From Escherichia coli (lineage in GTDB: Bacteria > Pseudomonadota > Gammaproteobacteria > Enterobacterales > Enterobacteriaceae): DNA of 64,000 bases. Shown here in pieces: positions 26,511 through 47,214 of the stretch. The stretch lies in the NCBI RefSeq assembly GCF_003991155.1, contig NZ_CP031294.1, one strand, 5' to 3'. Every line of letters starts with the position of its first letter. The first letter of the stretch is position 1. The position numbers were made by a program, and so were the translations under genes. The notes below the pieces were generated by a model. The model made no database searches. It was not told the origin of the DNA and saw only the letters and a list, made by a program, of their open reading frames with translations.

Positions 26511-26791
26511 TTAGTGGAGCAGACCGATGTCGATGGTATCCCCTGAATCATCCACACGGATCATCAGCATGGCAAAGGCGTTTAGTGGATAGCTTGCGTG
26601 CCATTCAGGGAAGCGGTCATCTCGCATGAAGTCGGCAATGTCGTAAACGCATCCCTCAAAGTGGAAGAATCGCGTGCTTACCTGCTCGTCATAATCCACA
26701 TGATCCATTTCTTGCTGTTCTGTTTCCGGCAAGTCCAGCCATGATTCAAGAAATACATTTTGTGCTTTAGGGGTAATGGTGAAATCAGTCA
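26511..26791 (-). CDS. small highly acidic protein
   Basis: ~93 aa with ~19 Asp/Glu vs ~5 Lys/Arg; start at ATG 26789-26791 (ORF-track upstream extension runs through promoter motif). Confidence 0.5.
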
Positions 26792-27127
26792 TGAGCATAT
26801 CCTCACTGCGTAAACATGTTGTTTTCTTGTTGGTGTAATTATCGCAGTGTAGATAAGGCATAAAAGAAGTTAATACAGGCTGAATACACAAGAAAGGTTC
26901 TGGAAGTTGATAGCCAGGTTTCAAACTAACCTTCGGTTATTAAAAGTCATTTAAGACCACCAATGCTGGTGGCCTTAATAATTATCGCCCGATTACGCTA
27001 AGGATCTTTTCCTCAACTGATTTGTTGTTGCGACTAAACTGCCTTGCGTATCTGATGACAGAAGAGGCGTTTTGCTTTCTGACCATCTCGGCTCTTTCCT
27101 TCAGGCGTTTCTTGAAATCGCCCATAT

Positions 27128-27502
27128 TTACCACCAGGCGCAGAAGGTCAGTCTGTTATTGTGAAAGTCGTGGTTCTTAATCAGATCTTCCACAAGCTCT
27201 TTCAACTCCCCCACATCATGCCAGTAACCTTCATCGTACTCCTGACTGCCGAAGAAAAAACCTTCCCGGGTAGGCAAGTACTCTTCGCAATTACTTTCGT
27301 TTATGTGCATCAAATGAGCCTTCAGAAAACAAATGTCATTCATCGTTAATTCTAAAAGCTCACAATTTTCGACTTCACCTACGTTGCGCTCCATCCACCC
27401 AACGAGCGCATTGAACTTACGGAAGTAAGCAACCTGCTTTCTGGATGCCTCGTTATTCAGATCGTTTTTAGGCTGTGTCTCGATATAGATATCAAGTCCC
27501 AT
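27128..27502 (-). CDS. hypothetical early protein
   Basis: Start placed at ATG 27500-27502 (MGLDIYIETQ) with AAGGAA RBS. Confidence 0.45.
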   Translation of the reverse strand: MGLDIYIETQPKNDLNNEASRKQVAYFRKFNALVGWMERNVGEVENCELLELTMNDICFLKAHLMHINESNCEEYLPTREGFFFGSQEYDEGYWHDVGELKELVEDLIKNHDFHNNRLTFCAWW

Positions 27503-27619
27503 GATGGTTTCCTTATTAAGTTGCTTCAGTGAAATCATTTTCACAAATCAGATAAGGCAGAAAACAAATTGTTATCGGGCATAAGAAAATGGCGCGGTTT
27601 ACGCGCCATTCAAAGAGGA

Positions 27620-28015
27620 TTAAGCGAATACGCTTTCAGGGATTAAGGTGTCAGCAGGAATGCCGGAGGTAATGCGCAGGCCGTACTGACCAATCCAGGT
27701 AGTGTTGGTATTCAGGCTGGAGGCGAATACGGTGTTAACCATATTCATCATGGTTTCAAACACCTCTTCATCAACCTGGCGGAAGTAGTTCTCGATTTTC
27801 AGCAGCAGCGGGTCAGTTGCATCGAAAATAGACTGGTATTGAGTCGCGTACTCGCCGCCGGAGGCATCACCTTTACGCACGATCGTACTGGCCTGGACTT
27901 CGGCACCAGTTTCGGTGTTGTACGTAACAACGGTGATTTTTGCCACATTCTTACCTTCGGCGGTTTCAGAGGCATAGTAAACATCAACTGTCAGTTTTTC
28001 GCGTTTAACGGTCAT
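27620..28015 (-). CDS. hypothetical early protein
   Basis: Start placed at internal ATG (MTVKREKL) with GGAGAG RBS; terminator hairpin downstream at ~27572-27598. Confidence 0.45.
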   Translation of the reverse strand: MTVKREKLTVDVYYASETAEGKNVAKITVVTYNTETGAEVQASTIVRKGDASGGEYATQYQSIFDATDPLLLKIENYFRQVDEEVFETMMNMVNTVFASSLNTNTTWIGQYGLRITSGIPADTLIPESVFA

Positions 28016-28141
28016 TTCACTCTCCGTAGTGTTTTGGTTATTTTTATATTCTATGATCGTAAGTATGTACTTACAATACAAAAAAGCCCCGTAAGGATGG
28101 CGGGGCTGTCGTACTGTCGACTAATTACCACTTGCACATTA

Positions 28142-28453
28142 TCAGGCTATTGCCATCACTGATGCTCTCTGAATCTCTTGCTGGGCCACGCGGTTAACTT
28201 CCATCAAAGCCAGTTCGAGCTGATGTTCCGGCCACATTCTTTGAAATGCCACCCAGCCTTTTCCACGCTGGCGACGAACATTCATTACATAACGAGTAAA
28301 GGTGTATTTATCGAAAGACACCGCTGTTTCACGGAACAGACGAATAGAGGTTCCATTGGCAACGATGTCCAGCAAAGTTAATTGAGCAACCAGCGCAGGC
28401 TTCTCTTTTCTCTTCTGGTCTTTGTCCAGACCAAGAACCAATGATTTTTTCAT
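28142..28453 (-). CDS. hypothetical early protein
   Basis: Start at ATG 28451-28453 (MKKSLVLGL), GGAG RBS, motif-A leader at 28465-28490. Confidence 0.45.
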   Translation of the reverse strand: MKKSLVLGLDKDQKRKEKPALVAQLTLLDIVANGTSIRLFRETAVSFDKYTFTRYVMNVRRQRGKGWVAFQRMWPEHQLELALMEVNRVAQQEIQRASVMAIA

Positions 28454-28606
28454 CACAACTCCGTAAACAACTTGTTTTCTCAATGGCGTAAATAATACCA
28501 GTAAGAAAACGGCTACAAAGCATATTGATCAGGTGCATGAGCGATATGCAGGTTCTTCCCTGCGGCTATAGAGAAATTAAGCCAGCATTGCTGGCTTTGG
28601 TTAGGT

Positions 28607-28936
28607 TTACTCGAATACTTCAAGAAACTCCTGAACGTCCCAATGCTGGACAAGGTGAAGATAGACCTTAGAAATAACATCATTCTCGCTATCGCATGTG
28701 AAGTAGTACTTCTGGCTGCGGTTGTATGTGTCCACACAAAATTCGCTCATATCCATAAAGTCAGCATCTTCACCCATGTCGCAAATCATCAAAGCAGGTG
28801 CGTCATCACGAGTCATCAGCTCAAGCACCCACCGCGAATTGATCAGAGTGGAAGACCAACCTTCTAACTCATAAAACTGATCAAACTCTTTTTGAGTTAA
28901 TTTCTTGATTTGGTTGATGTCGATATTTGCAAACAT
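28607..28936 (-). CDS. hypothetical early protein
   Basis: Start at ATG 28934-28936 (MFANIDINQ), AGGA RBS, motif-A leader at 28948-28983. Confidence 0.45.
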   Translation of the reverse strand: MFANIDINQIKKLTQKEFDQFYELEGWSSTLINSRWVLELMTRDDAPALMICDMGEDADFMDMSEFCVDTYNRSQKYYFTCDSENDVISKVYLHLVQHWDVQEFLEVFE

Positions 28937-30490
28937 AAAGCAATCCTTAAACAACATGTTTTCTTGATGGTGTTATTATCGCAATAACGCACAGGTGAAA
29001 AAGGATTTTATTCCGGTGAATGTGGTTTTGGCAGTGAGTTTTCAGGTTCAGTACCGAGTACACTTTTTACATTATTCTGATTTAGTGGCCGAAGGTGGCT
29101 GGTGGGCAGAATAATCCTCTCCCCGAAAACCTACTGAAATCGATTGTGACCCGTTGGCTGTCTGGCACAATTACGCTGTAACTGGGCATTCAGAGGGAAT
29201 CCAGCGGTAAGTAAGTTCGCCTGCACGTGAGCGCCTCTCTTCTTCCCGCACATTACAGGTGGGTAGCCGCAACTCTCCCTCTCGCTATACCGGTACGCCG
29301 CCGTTCCTGAACCGGCATCGAGCCTTCTCCCGAAATCCACACAGGCAACTCGACCGTTTCCCTGAAAACCTCCAGCCGTTCCCCGAAGGCAACCCAGCCG
29401 TTTCTGTAGCGGGATGCAACCTTTTCCCTGTATGGACCGAAGGCTGACCGTAGGGGTGTTACGGGGGATAAAATCAGGAGTTGAATAAATACGAAAAAGG
29501 AGGCGACACCCCTCCTTCTCTCCCCACTTATACATACCTGGCTTCTTCGCTATACATGTTGTGTTTTATTCGTGTTTTATCTGTCTCAACCTCTCTATGG
29601 ACGTTAATACTCACTCCTTCCAGAACGTTCTATACGGCGACTAATTCTGTTGGTGAATTGGGTGTGTTGTTCTCTCTGTCGGTGTATGTGGTTTCGTTCG
29701 TTTTGCGGTGGTTCTTCTATGGGGTGTTCTCGTCGTTTTGGTGATTGTTCTTCTCCGTGTATGGAGTAATGGCAGGTGGGCGATTCCTTTCGTTATTGTG
29801 TTTGAGTTGTTTGTCTGGAGTGCGTGAAGGGCTTTTGTAGTTATTCGTGTGTTGGGTAATGGCGTTTCCCGTGATTGTTCTGTTTCGTGTCTTTTGGGAT
29901 TGAGAGAAACCTTGCGGTTACAGGCTTCGTTGGGGTTTCAGTGATTCTGGTGTTTCTTCGCTGTTTGGGTAATGGCGTGTCGTGGGTATCGCGCGTATGG
30001 AAGTTTCGAATTGCCTGTGAAAGTTAGGTTGGTTGTCCGGTAGCCTGAGAAGAAGAGGTGGGTCTTTTCGGTAGCCTGCCATAAAGAGGTTGGTTGTTTT
30101 TGGTAATGGCATATGTGTTATTTAGTTGTTTTGTTATGCCTGAAAATAAGTTGTTTATATGGTTATGTAACGCAACGGGAACGATTTTGAGCGTGTGTTT
30201 TTGTTGGTAGTGTGTTGGGTCGTCTGTGGTGAAAATTGGACGCTGTGGCGCTGTCTGCTGCGTAGAATTACGGGTATAAGCAGTGATGTGTGAAAACGTC
30301 AATTTTTTAGACCAAATCGGGTGAAAGCGTTGATGTTTCGTTGATCTGTTATTCAGTTGTTTTCTTATTGGTATAAACAACTGTAACCTATTGATATTTA
30401 AGGATGTGATTCCAGGCATGGAAGGGGAGTAGTGGCGATCAACGGATTCTTATAGAAAAGAATCAAATTGTGACCGCCATTATCAATGTT

Positions 30491-44383: not shown

Positions 44384-44680
44384 GTGTTTTTCCTAATTCT
44401 TAAACAAGTTGTTTTCTTATTGGCTTTATTGTGATGTGGCATAAAAGGGGAGCAAGCTAAACGTAAAGGTGCAAACTCTCTATTTCGGTCAACGAAACAC
44501 AAGGGCCATTTGGCCCTTGTTATTAACACGTTGCTTTACGGACTAGCGGATAAGCGAAGTAGATCGCCAGACCAATGAGGACGCCATCAGAAATGACAGA
44601 CATCATCTTTCCCGTAAAATCCACCAACACCGCCATCACCAGAAGAGCAATGACGATCACAAGCCGGAATCTCTCAAGCA

Positions 44681-45106
44681 TTAGAGATAAGCATCCAGTG
44701 ACAACTGAAGCGCCTGGGCGATCTTTTTCAGTGCCTGCTCTTCTTGTTCACCAATGCCATCCTGATCGGCAATATCAAGGCACAGACACAGAACATCGAC
44801 CGCCTCTGGAGTACCCGCAATATCAGACAGCTCACGAATAGCCTGTGCATTAGCAGAACGAGGGGACGCTTCGTAACGAGCACGGATATTGGCGCTCATT
44901 TGGGCAATTTCACCAGCAAACGGAGAAAACGCAGGCAGAGCTGCAATTGTCTTCTCAAGAATGGCAATTTCTTTTGCGTCACATGTGCCGTCGGCATAGG
45001 AGATCATGTACGCGCCCCACACGGTGGCCTCAACCGCATCACGGTTCTCCATTTTTTTGACTTCGATAACTGCTTTACGAGTTTTCTTTTTGAAGAAACC
45101 TAACAT
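44681..45106 (-). CDS. hypothetical early protein (possible TerB-like fold)
   Basis: 141 aa; conserved RBS context; motif-A leader at 45128-45160; TerB assignment is weak pattern recognition only. Confidence 0.4.
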   Translation of the reverse strand: MLGFFKKKTRKAVIEVKKMENRDAVEATVWGAYMISYADGTCDAKEIAILEKTIAALPAFSPFAGEIAQMSANIRARYEASPRSANAQAIRELSDIAGTPEAVDVLCLCLDIADQDGIGEQEEQALKKIAQALQLSLDAYL

Positions 45107-45199: not shown

Positions 45200-45388
45200 T
45201 CAGAAATAACCAAGTACCGAACCGACTGGAAAAACAAAAATCCCAACTACACGAGCCAAGGTCATGCCAGCCTGAAACTGGAGATCGCCAGAGCAAACAA
45301 GTTTTATAATGTTCGATACCCAACCGGCGGCCATGAGGGCAAGAATTGCCAGCCAAATTTTTCCAAAGTGATTTGAAAACCAGTTCAT
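45200..45388 (-). CDS. small membrane protein (two predicted TM helices)
   Basis: 62 aa, hydrophobic stretches IWLAILALMAAGWV and VVGIFVFPVGSVLGYF. Confidence 0.4.
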   Translation of the reverse strand: MNWFSNHFGKIWLAILALMAAGWVSNIIKLVCSGDLQFQAGMTLARVVGIFVFPVGSVLGYF

Positions 45389-45636
45389 ACAACCGCCTTA
45401 GTCACAGCATGATCCTGAGTAACCGGATGAACTTGAGGTATCGCATCCACCGTCATCCCATCCAGAGTGACAGGACGCTCTACTGGAGTGGTGGTAATTG
45501 TCGTCGACGGAGGTGTGGTGATGGATGAACCCGGCATCAAAAGGCTCTGGCCGGCTGGAACGGCTACCGTCGCCAGTGAAACTATAATGAGAACGTAGGC
45601 CATTGGTTTCAGCCTCTTTCTTTGAAAATTTTCCAT
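45385..45636 (-). CDS. small secreted protein candidate
   Basis: Signal-like MAYVLIIVSLATVAVPAG; 4-bp overlap with downstream gene; fully embedded in another frame of ORF 45398..45892. Confidence 0.3.
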   Translation of the reverse strand: MENFQRKRLKPMAYVLIIVSLATVAVPAGQSLLMPGSSITTPPSTTITTTPVERPVTLDGMTVDAIPQVHPVTQDHAVTKAVV

Positions 45637-45892
45637 TCGAACTGTCCTTGTTGTTTTTCTCCTTCACTAAAGGCCGTGTACTTTTCGCTTCGCGTGAAGA
45701 ACCAGAGGCAACAATCGCCCCCACGTTCGCAACAACTGACGCTTGATTATCTAAACGTTCATTCAGCAACCGAACGGTAGTCTCTAGTTCATCAAGACGT
45801 GACATAACACGACCGCTAAACAATTCGGCCAAAATTTGACGTAAAGAACGAGGACGTTTAGTTGCAGAAGTGAAATAGGTTTGACGTGCCAT
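45398..45892 (-). CDS. hypothetical protein (N-terminal part plausible, C-terminal low complexity)
   Basis: 164-aa ORF; C-terminal third Ser/Gly/His-rich; overlaps 45385..45636. Confidence 0.3.
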   Translation of the reverse strand: MARQTYFTSATKRPRSLRQILAELFSGRVMSRLDELETTVRLLNERLDNQASVVANVGAIVASGSSREAKSTRPLVKEKNNKDSSNGKFSKKEAETNGLRSHYSFTGDGSRSSRPEPFDAGFIHHHTSVDDNYHHSSRASCHSGWDDGGCDTSSSSGYSGSCCD

Positions 45893-46037
45893 GTGGACTC
45901 CATCCAGTGTCAGAAAGAGTTGCGGCTGGCGATTGCCAGCCGCCTTTCTCGTTCCATCCTGGAACTGTGTCTTACCGACACATTGTCATCCTGACGCTGA
46001 TAAGATACATGATTTAAAATGATAGGTAAACACTTAC

Positions 46038-46682
46038 TTACCACTTGTTATAAACAAAACCAATATCTTTCTTGTGAGGCATATCTGCTGCTGAAAAAGC
46101 TGCGATCTTCGCGAGTCGATCACATATTTCATTTTCACGATGCCCGGCGTGACCTTTAACCCACTTCCAGCGAACATTATGTCGACTTGCGGCCTCATCC
46201 AGACGTTTCCACAGATCAACATTCTTTACCGGTTTTTTATCAGAAGTCATCCATCCATTACGTTTCCACCATTTCATCCACTGTGTCATGCCGTTTTTCA
46301 GATACTGGCTATCAGAGTACAAAATAACGTTGCATGGATATTTCAAACGCTCCAGCCCGATAAGTGCGCCCATCATCTCCATGCGGTTATTGGTGGTGCT
46401 ATGAAAACCATCTGAGAACTCGCGTTCCTCACCACGATACTGGAGAACGATACCGTAACCGCCCGGGCCACCCGGATTTTTAAGGCAAGAGCCATCACTA
46501 AAGATTTTCACGGTTTTGAGCTGGGGATTGAACTCTACGACAGGCGTTGTGGGATTGGTGCGGGGAGAATTTTTGTTTTTGGCTTTTTTGCGAGTTTTTG
46601 CTTGCGATCGGGCTGGTGTCTTCGTCGTCATATAAACTCCTGAATCAAGCGCCGCGCCGATTTTTTCCTCGCGCGTGCGCAC
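46038..46682 (-). CDS. rnhA: ribonuclease H (RNase HI family)
   Basis: C-terminal region [12 protein letters not shown]...[16 protein letters not shown]...[26 protein letters not shown]...[16 protein letters not shown] matches RNase HI; basic N-terminal extension. Confidence 0.85.
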
Positions 46683-47214
46683 ACGCGTGCGTGTTAATAA
46701 TTATTAAAATAAACAAATTACTTCCCAGAACAGGTTTTTTATAAACCTGAACTGAACGAACGAAGTGAGTGAAGTTCACCTCGAACGAAGTGAGAGGTTG
46801 TCTTTTCAGGTAATACTCTCCCAGGGAGGTGAGTATAAAATTCCTCACCAACCTGGTCGTTTCATAACCTGAAAAGCTATGGTCTAAGTCTACTGCCAGC
46901 TTAGACTTGGGAAGTTATGGATGACAGCACCCCAGAACCGAGATCTTCCCACACTTTATGAAGGGGAGTACTGGATTCAACCTCTCGAAACACCCCAGAC
47001 TCGACAATCATAAAGTGACCCTTGTCTCTGCTCACTTTGGTTCCCCCTTCCCCGACACCTAAACGGCACCGGTTCTACGCTGGTAGTGAGCTTTTTTAAA
47101 CCTGACGCCAGTGACGCTTACCCCCACCCATCAGGTCGAGTCTCCAGTCTACGACTGGAAACTATCAGATCTTAGCACTTACAATTCACTTTATGAATAG
47201 TTTGTACTTATCTA

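Follow-up and report, generated by a model that had tools for sequence, protein, structure and literature searches.

A stretch of 64,000 nt from Escherichia coli (contig NZ_CP031294.1), referred to here as the window, was analyzed and found to be part of an SSU5-like phage-plasmid. The subject of this report is a cluster of three small open reading frames (ORFs) on its minus strand, named here genes A, B and C, in which A and B overlap in two frames of the same DNA and both end at the start of C (Table 1). An earlier note, made from the sequence alone, had listed these ORFs, and their coordinates and strand were confirmed. The 2.1 kb around A/B/C share 98.7% identity with Escherichia phage Cyrano (pLF82) and 96-98% with other E. 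coli SSU5-like phage-plasmids. The equivalents of the window in Cyrano extend from about 61.7 kb to the end of the genome and then from position 1 to about 17.3 kb. The window holds replication, DNA-metabolism and structural genes, with neither the lysis cassette nor the repressor/integrase region, and the A/B/C locus is surrounded by DNA-metabolism and early genes.

The dual-coding stretch consists of 239 nt, which appear to encode the tail of A in frame 0 and most of B in frame +1. The earlier note placed B entirely within A, but the B frame continues for 13 nt past the stop codon of A, making B an overlapped and not an embedded gene. The TGA of B overlaps the ATG of C in the sequence ATGA (45385-45388). 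The stop codon of A is in turn merged with the Shine-Dalgarno sequence of C, an arrangement found in all lineages, where the A stop, T[GA]A, is fused into a GAGG or AAGG motif (T[GA]AGG). Searches with tblastn returned the same 12 phage records whether A or B was the query, and A homologues were found in 679 PLSDB plasmids. For the comparative analyses, loci were gathered from phages, PLSDB plasmids, IMG/VR and metagenome assemblies, which yielded 55 unique A-to-B sequences in about ten lineages; their sources were elements of E. coli, Salmonella (SSU5, pHCM2), Klebsiella, Cronobacter and Enterobacter, and three additional lineages. The geometry was identical in the 55 sequences: A always stops 13 nt before B, and the B stop always overlaps an ATGA or GTGA at the start of C. 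Every indel was a multiple of three, including 15 additional codons in the Klebsiella type, two in L009 and a 9-codon duplication in L090. This conservation was observed among lineages whose amino acid identity to the window is only 42-54% for A and 50-60% for B, and the third forward frame contains 3-6 stops per lineage. The only exceptions to the geometry were sporadic frameshifted copies (L013, L056, L080).

Gene A matches phrog_10411 and is labelled hypothetical in Cyrano (CYRAN_83) and SSU5 (SSU5_091). Its product has a basic N-terminus followed by a coiled-coil-like helix at residues 17-71, modeled by AlphaFold2 (AF2) from a 16-sequence alignment with a predicted local distance difference test score (pLDDT) of 70-86; from residue 69 to the C-terminus the pLDDT falls to about 40. 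The part encoded in the overlap (residues 86-164) is predicted to be disordered, and is of low complexity and rich in Ser, Gly, His, Asp and Cys. Hydropathy analysis found no transmembrane (TM) segment in A (the maximal Kyte-Doolittle mean over 17 residues was 1.03, with nothing reaching 1.6). A profile search of the PDB with A produced coiled-coil noise only (SlyX, P22 gp26), and scans of A, B and C against Pfam, NCBIfam and PADLOC gave zero matches. We propose that A is a cytoplasmic protein composed of a coiled-coil-like helix and a disordered tail.

Gene B matches phrog_15659, and the relatives of both A and B are confined to SSU5-like elements. The signal-like N-terminus that had been ascribed to B was borne out by hydropathy analysis, which located a single hydrophobic segment at about residues 9-34 (maximum Kyte-Doolittle value, 2.24) after a basic N-terminus. 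AF2 placed a helix at residues 2-24 and left the remainder unstructured; the models of A and B are of low confidence for the most part, one helix in each excepted. The alignment of B shows a basic n-region, a hydrophobic core, conserved P27 and Q30, a hypervariable Thr/Pro/Ser linker and an invariant LDGM-xx-D-x-I motif, with 17 residues invariant across 18 diverse sequences. Judging from these features, the hydrophobic segment would be either cleaved (VPA/G) or retained as an anchor, and B is probably exported or inserted at the inner membrane. There is no Cys in B of the E. coli, Salmonella, Cronobacter and Enterobacter lineages, and the Cys of the Klebsiella type occurs in the sequence LMPDSC, where the PDSC context is not a lipobox. 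The ATG of B (45636) is invariant across all lineages. A second Met, M12, is the start used by phrog_15659; it is replaced by Ile in the L065 lineage, so M1 was taken as the start of B. A GGAG, AGGA or GGGA sequence precedes the ATG by 8-9 nt in every lineage, while the A-frame residues that overlie it vary (KD, ME, TG, KE). B is unannotated in Cyrano, PhiR41_1 and SSU5, whose records contain the 164-aa and 62-aa ORFs alone, each labelled hypothetical. In some other assemblies the gene callers took B and left A uncalled, and the records inspected contain an annotation for either A or B and never for the two together. A search of the literature found no account of the A/B overlap and no ribosome profiling or proteomic data.

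An open frame of the size of B is not beyond chance when a single sequence is considered, because the window alone contains 11 same-strand ORFs of 80 aa or more whose overlap with a long ORF in another frame is 200 nt or more, and the exact probability that the B frame is open given the A-tail protein is 0.09-0.71. The converse probability, that the A frame is open given the B protein, is 0.04-0.13 per lineage. The evidence that both frames are maintained came instead from the comparison of lineages. In the part of A outside the overlap, parsimony changes per site on the tree followed the order expected of a coding frame, A3 > A1 > A2 (2.47, 1.54 and 1.06). In the overlap the order was B3 (which is A1) at 1.75, B1 at 1.30 and B2 (which is A3) at 1.17; therefore, frame B dominates there, and the third positions of A are the most conserved. 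Nei-Gojobori ratios of nonsynonymous to synonymous differences (pN/pS) were 0.50 in the head of A, and 1.03 for frame A and 0.62 for frame B in the overlap, but these pairwise ratios by themselves do not separate dual coding from coding by B only. Substitution classes were reconstructed on the tree and scaled to the synonymous rate of the A head as neutral. Substitutions that change B occurred at 0.44-0.49 of the neutral rate irrespective of their effect on A, and those that change A and are silent in B at 0.73, so that the suppression of the synonymous rate of frame B is modest overall. By these rates, B is clearly under purifying selection and the A tail, taken as a whole, weakly so.

The constraint on the A tail is found mainly in three short islands. 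At conserved four-fold degenerate codons in the overlap, third-position changes averaged 0.60 in frame B and 0.42 in frame A, compared with 1.39 in the A head, 2.06 in gene C and 1.14 in RNase H (one-sided Mann-Whitney p = 1.3e-4 for B and 6.7e-5 for A, versus A head plus C). B-synonymous sites invariant in 55 of 55 sequences cluster where A reads NGLR and B reads PMAY, where A reads SGWD and B reads LDGM, and at the C-terminal CCD of A. The absence of stop codons is also informative. Given the rate observed for each class and the proportion of possible mutations that would yield a stop, about 10 nonsense substitutions in frame A were expected on the tree; none is present in the 55 extant sequences. 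When selection on B only was simulated along the tree, A acquired stops in 38 of 55 leaves on average and no run of 400 was free of them, and when selection acted on A only, B stayed free of stops in 1 of 400 runs. These sequence comparisons argue with high confidence that both frames are maintained by selection, and with moderate confidence that the A tail is functional as a peptide and not merely as an open frame.

The best reading of these data, to which we assign a probability of about 0.6, is that A, B and C form a small operon of SSU5-like elements in which 239 nt are translated in two frames. A/B would then be a conserved overprinted pair whose frames converge on a third gene that encodes a small membrane protein. 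Several observations weigh against it. The pN/pS of frame A is about 1.03 in the overlap, and the A tail is predicted to be disordered. Substitutions that change both proteins are not rarer than those that change B only (0.49 versus 0.44), which makes the amino acid selection on the A tail weak and patchy. The neutral reference was taken from flanking segments at a locus with evident recombination, and the comparisons of rates between segments are approximate for that reason. Some public assemblies carry frameshift alleles with A and B fused, and the intact arrangement can therefore be dispensed with. C has been lost in some lineages that keep A/B; coupling to C is thus not the sole reason the frames are kept. 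None of the three products has homology to any function in the profile searches mentioned above, and the translation of both overlapping frames is deduced from sequence patterns.

The most substantial competitor is the view that only B and the N-terminal coiled coil of A are functional, the A tail being a by-product of B that is translated for want of an earlier stop, and either tolerated, perhaps on account of its disorder, or kept open to deliver ribosomes to C. We consider this unlikely. It would account for the pN/pS near 1, for a disordered tail of low complexity and for changes to both proteins being no rarer than changes that are silent in A and alter B; in addition, the use of the A stop as Shine-Dalgarno sequence of C would fix the position of the stop without a functional tail. 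It does not account for the lack of nonsense changes in about ten lineages against about 10 expected, for the failure of all 400 simulations of selection on B to leave A open, for the invariant B-synonymous sites at NGLR, SGWD and CCD or for the significant depletion of changes at frame-B four-fold sites, and the lineages without C still keep A open to the identical position. The variant in which the frame serves the delivery of ribosomes and not the peptide retains some probability. The opposite view, that A and C, the annotated genes, are the only real ones and B is a chance product of the Ser/Gly/His/Asp-rich composition of A, agrees with the high probability of an open B frame given the A tail, with the number of similar ORFs in other frames in the window and with the missing annotation in Cyrano, PhiR41_1 and SSU5. 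It is nevertheless highly improbable: substitutions in the overlap track frame B and not frame A, the synonymous sites of A are the least variable positions, the ATG and Shine-Dalgarno sequence of B are conserved in all lineages, the B protein has a coherent anatomy with its 17 invariant residues, and simulated selection on A kept B open in just the one run of 400.

Nor does a programmed +1 frameshift, by which the N-terminal domain of A would be joined to the B frame in a fusion of coiled coil, TM segment and periplasmic tail with no independent initiation of B, seem at all probable. In the window, a U4 run (AAA UUU UCA) at the beginning of the overlap would let tRNA-Phe re-pair in the +1 frame, and natural single-base deletions generate fusions of this type. 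The Klebsiella type, however, has no U4 run (CAA TTT CAA), and SSU5 has no T4 run at the other junction; as these runs are lineage-specific and no slippery site is conserved, frameshifting was rejected. The invariant ATG of B and its conserved Shine-Dalgarno sequence also speak for separate initiation, stops in frame B occur at variable distances upstream of the ATG, and the fusion alleles are few and could have arisen through errors of assembly. In these alleles (P0023, P0024, P0025, P0028 and P0034, from public assemblies) the N-terminal part of A is fused to the B frame in a product that is always 168 aa long, as the consequence of single-base deletions in short homopolymers (an A5 run, and the T4 run of CCTTTTGAT). 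If they are not sequencing errors in homopolymers, they circulate as loss-of-function or fusion alleles. A different kind of variant is the A gene of L069 (IMG/VR uncultivated virus genome 2576861193_000004), a mosaic that is of the L009 type over its N-terminal two thirds and of the E. coli/window type over its C-terminal third. A recombination breakpoint therefore lies within the dual-coding region, and this is the recombination that makes comparisons of rates between segments approximate.

The earlier note had likened the locus to overlapping lysis genes while remarking that no lipobox or endolysin was nearby. The remark was correct, since B lacks a lipobox and the Cyrano endolysin is about 52 kb away, outside the window; of the likeness, the architecture stood (a +1 overlap, a signal-like B and a two-TM C) and the lysis role did not, on grounds of both anatomy and location. 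Like lambda Rz/Rz1 and other two-component spanins, the locus has a small Pro-rich protein, predicted to be exported, whose gene occupies the +1 frame over the 3' part of a coiled-coil gene. The smaller gene shares 239 nt with the larger one and runs 13 nt past it, as in the overlapped class of spanins, and in both systems the conserved parts of one frame lie opposite the flexible or disordered part of the other. That A and B are a divergent spanin or other lysis pair with C as a holin-like partner, a view that can draw on these parallels, on the Pro/Thr-rich B and on the small two-TM C, is the least probable of the explanations weighed here. Without a TM segment A has no route to the periplasm, B has no lipobox Cys, there is no sequence similarity to spanins, and Cyrano has its own holin-endolysin-Rz-Rz1 cassette at 26739-28157, about 52 kb from A (79800). 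The same separation is seen in SSU5, where a census of spanins located the overlapped pair at 28585-29000 (Kongari et al. 2018, PMC6139136) and SSU5_091 lies at 80054-80548. A/B are same-strand overlapping phage genes that share with overlapped spanins the genetic architecture and none of the defining features, and their membership in that class was rejected. C was rejected as a holin as well; it ends in its second TM segment (...PVGSVLGYF) with no charged C-terminal tail, the endolysin is 52 kb away, and its relatives are found amid DNA-metabolism genes.

Gene C encodes, as the earlier note had stated, a 62-aa protein with two hydrophobic segments (about residues 11-32 and 42-62 by hydropathy). 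It belongs to phrog_6006 (E = 2.1e-25, profile positions 1-58 of 58), a very large uncharacterized family of two-TM phage proteins without a Pfam model. An exhaustive profile search collected 1094 cluster representatives (50% identity) at E <= 1e-3, nearly all of 55-70 aa and with the same motif, and 10 of 10 sampled relatives of C matched phrog_6006. C shares with the family the sequence GW-x-NI-x-K ... GM-x-x-x-R-x-x-G-x-F-x-x-P-x-G-x-x-L-G-F-F, a length of about 60-67 aa and the two TM segments. The genes around three sampled relatives code for NinB, ligase, kinase and phosphatase, and members of the family typically occur in nin-like early regions and not in lysis cassettes. No A/B-like partner was found next to distant C homologues; the family members of other phages follow unrelated genes, and the A/B pair is specific to SSU5-like elements. 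C is absent from L065-type and GArcari-type elements (loci L065, L066, L068 and L005), where A and B are intact. The L065 type has ATAA in place of the ATGA of C and no longer contains the gene, and in GArcari-2022b B is followed by a reverse-strand ORF of 689 aa. Because A and B persist where C is missing, A/B is the core and C a separable module.

Under the preferred reading, translation of A would begin at 45892 and yield the cytoplasmic helix with its disordered Ser/Gly/His/Cys tail, and B would be initiated inside A from its own Shine-Dalgarno sequence and ATG in the +1 frame. The hydrophobic segment would insert B into the inner membrane or export it across, placing the unstructured Thr/Pro-rich tail with its LDGM-xx-D-x-I motif outside the cytoplasm. 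Since A terminates within the Shine-Dalgarno sequence of C and B on its start codon, ribosomes from both frames could be passed to C. The B-C coupling asserted by the earlier note thus has a visible basis in the TGA/ATG overlap, and translational coupling of A and B to C is a probable, sequence-based extension of it. B is probably the older frame and the A tail an overprinted extension. With regard to function, the topology, the genetic context and the silence of the locus in a lysogen hint, with low confidence, at an envelope role of A/B/C in the lytic or early phase, such as superinfection exclusion or membrane modification, and not in lysogeny. A bolder version is speculative and improbable: the A/B overlap would be a functional unit of a new kind, its Cys/His-rich A tail working on the cytoplasmic side of the inner membrane and its B tail on the periplasmic side, in concert with C, and the conserved structured leader with its CsrA-type GGA loops would serve as the switch of this undescribed envelope-directed module of the early phase. 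If it were true, such a module (for exclusion, lysis timing or host takeover) would be carried by hundreds of phage-plasmids of clinical Enterobacteriaceae.

Overprinted same-strand genes of small phages are also comparable. The phiX174 genes B in A, E in D and K, and the MS2 gene L, also make two proteins from one stretch in different frames, and in such pairs the newer frame is compositionally biased and disordered and the suppression of synonymous sites is diagnostic. What was found for A/B corresponds to this: both frames are open beyond chance, synonymous suppression exists in each frame, and there are internal initiation signals. The differences are that A/B is located in a 108-kb genome without obvious size pressure and that its frames converge on the start of a third gene. 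The T4 proteins Imm and Sp, small membrane or periplasmic exclusion proteins encoded among early/accessory genes and not in a lysis cassette, are a functional analogy of use as a lead only; they have no homology to A, B or C.

Clinical E. coli, Klebsiella, Salmonella and Enterobacter commonly carry SSU5-like phage-plasmids, and the number of PLSDB plasmids with the locus reflects this. As annotation pipelines called A or B and never both in the records inspected, a small protein predicted to be exported is systematically missing from these genomes. Well-supported dual coding on one strand of a large phage genome, without packaging pressure, is a natural case in which to study the origin and persistence of overprinting, and in this pair the two products can be told apart by precise mutations that affect one frame and spare the other. 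The structured RNA upstream of A and the large uncharacterized family phrog_6006 are further handles on the unexplored early-phase biology of SSU5-like elements.

Table 1. Features of the A/B/C locus and its surroundings (positions in the window).
Feature	Position	Strand	Remarks
Terminator-like hairpin	44499..44520	minus	Right after tciB; ACAAGGGCC-AAAT-GGCCCTTGT plus T-rich tail
tciB (DUF3927)	44523-44681	minus	Downstream of tciA, co-directional
tciA (TerB-like)	44681-45106	minus	Downstream of C, co-directional
Gene C	45200..45388	minus	62 aa; in the frame of A, three codons past the A stop
Gene B	45385..45636	minus	83 aa; +1 frame of A; stop TGA 45385-45387; example peptide LKPMAYVLIIVSLATVAVPAGQSLLMPGSSITTPPSTTITTTPVER
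A stop merged with Shine-Dalgarno of C	45396..45400	minus	7 nt upstream of the ATG of C
Gene A	45398..45892	minus	164 aa; stop TAA 45398-45400
Dual-coding stretch	45398..45636	minus	239 nt; frame 0, A tail; frame +1, B
Shine-Dalgarno-like sequence of B	45645..45649	minus	AAGGA; 8 nt upstream of the ATG of B
Shine-Dalgarno of A	45898..45901	minus	GGAG in the window and GGA in the remaining lineages; 5 nt before the A start codon (ATG, 45892)
Conserved structured RNA	45906..45999	minus	94 nt, four helices; in the RNase H-A spacer
GC-rich 9-bp hairpin	45922..45943	minus	Part of the conserved RNA; followed by invariant AACUCUUUCUGACA; terminator- or attenuator-like, with a terminator-like score
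Putative sigma-70 promoter	46002..46030	minus	-35 TTTACC (46025-46030), 17-nt spacer, -10 TATCTT (46002-46007)
Imperfect palindrome	46021..46042		GATAGGTAAACACTTACTTACC on the plus strand; overlaps the RNase H stop and the putative -35 of A
RNase H	46038..46682	minus	Upstream of A
CYRAN_81 equivalent	46901..47035	minus	Region of a 44-aa GTG-start ORF between Dam and RNase H

The 150 nt between RNase H and A show 85-87% column identity, a value above those of both flanking genes. The spacer is non-coding, because its alignment contains 1-nt indels; these also ruled out a 43-46 aa ORF antisense to the leader that had looked conserved. Within the spacer, the conserved RNA has 97-99% of its cells paired, as opposed to 25-50% when the partners are slid, and compensatory changes were found in 4 of 6 pairs of one hairpin and 2 of 9 of the 9-bp GC hairpin. 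With a covariance model it was found once only, both in the window and in 100 kb of Cyrano. Nothing anywhere in the window reached the gathering score of an Rfam family, and the leader gave only a weak match to CsrB (E = 0.064), far below that score. The sequence CAGGAUG is present in two hairpin loops and a further GGA in the Shine-Dalgarno sequence of A, a distribution that resembles the pattern of CsrA-binding sites. The RNA may regulate the A/B/C operon, as a leader or attenuator, or may be the 3' untranslated region of RNase H; its GC hairpin could act as a terminator of RNase H transcripts, as an attenuator of A, or in both ways. The hexamers of the putative sigma-70 promoter are invariant or nearly so across lineages, and its score, 8/12, is under the threshold of the scanning tool. 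The imperfect palindrome was considered as a repeated operator and rejected, as it is unique within the window.

The genes around the locus, all on the minus strand, follow the order Dam methylase, RNase H, A, B, C, TerB-like tciA and DUF3927 tciB. In the window sequence there is no terminator between C and tciA, so A-B-C-tciA-tciB may share one transcription unit in this element. The tciA/tciB pair, known from P1, is adjacent to A/B/C, runs in the same direction and may be co-transcribed with them in the window, and is unrelated to them in sequence. They are not an obligate part of the module, since SSU5 and pHCM2 retain A/B/C and have a Rha/antirepressor gene in place of tciA/tciB. In RNA sequencing of an LF82 lysogen, CYRAN_83 and CYRAN_84 were at background, with about 8 fragments per kilobase per million (fpkm) as in their neighbors (PMC9928086 S1 Table). 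Given this background transcription, A/B/C is not a lysogenic-conversion module and is presumably expressed after induction or infection. The sole nearby feature strongly transcribed in that lysogen was CYRAN_81, with 117 fpkm versus about 8 for its neighbors (PMC9928086 S1 Table), and the equivalent region of the window could encode a small protein or a non-coding RNA.

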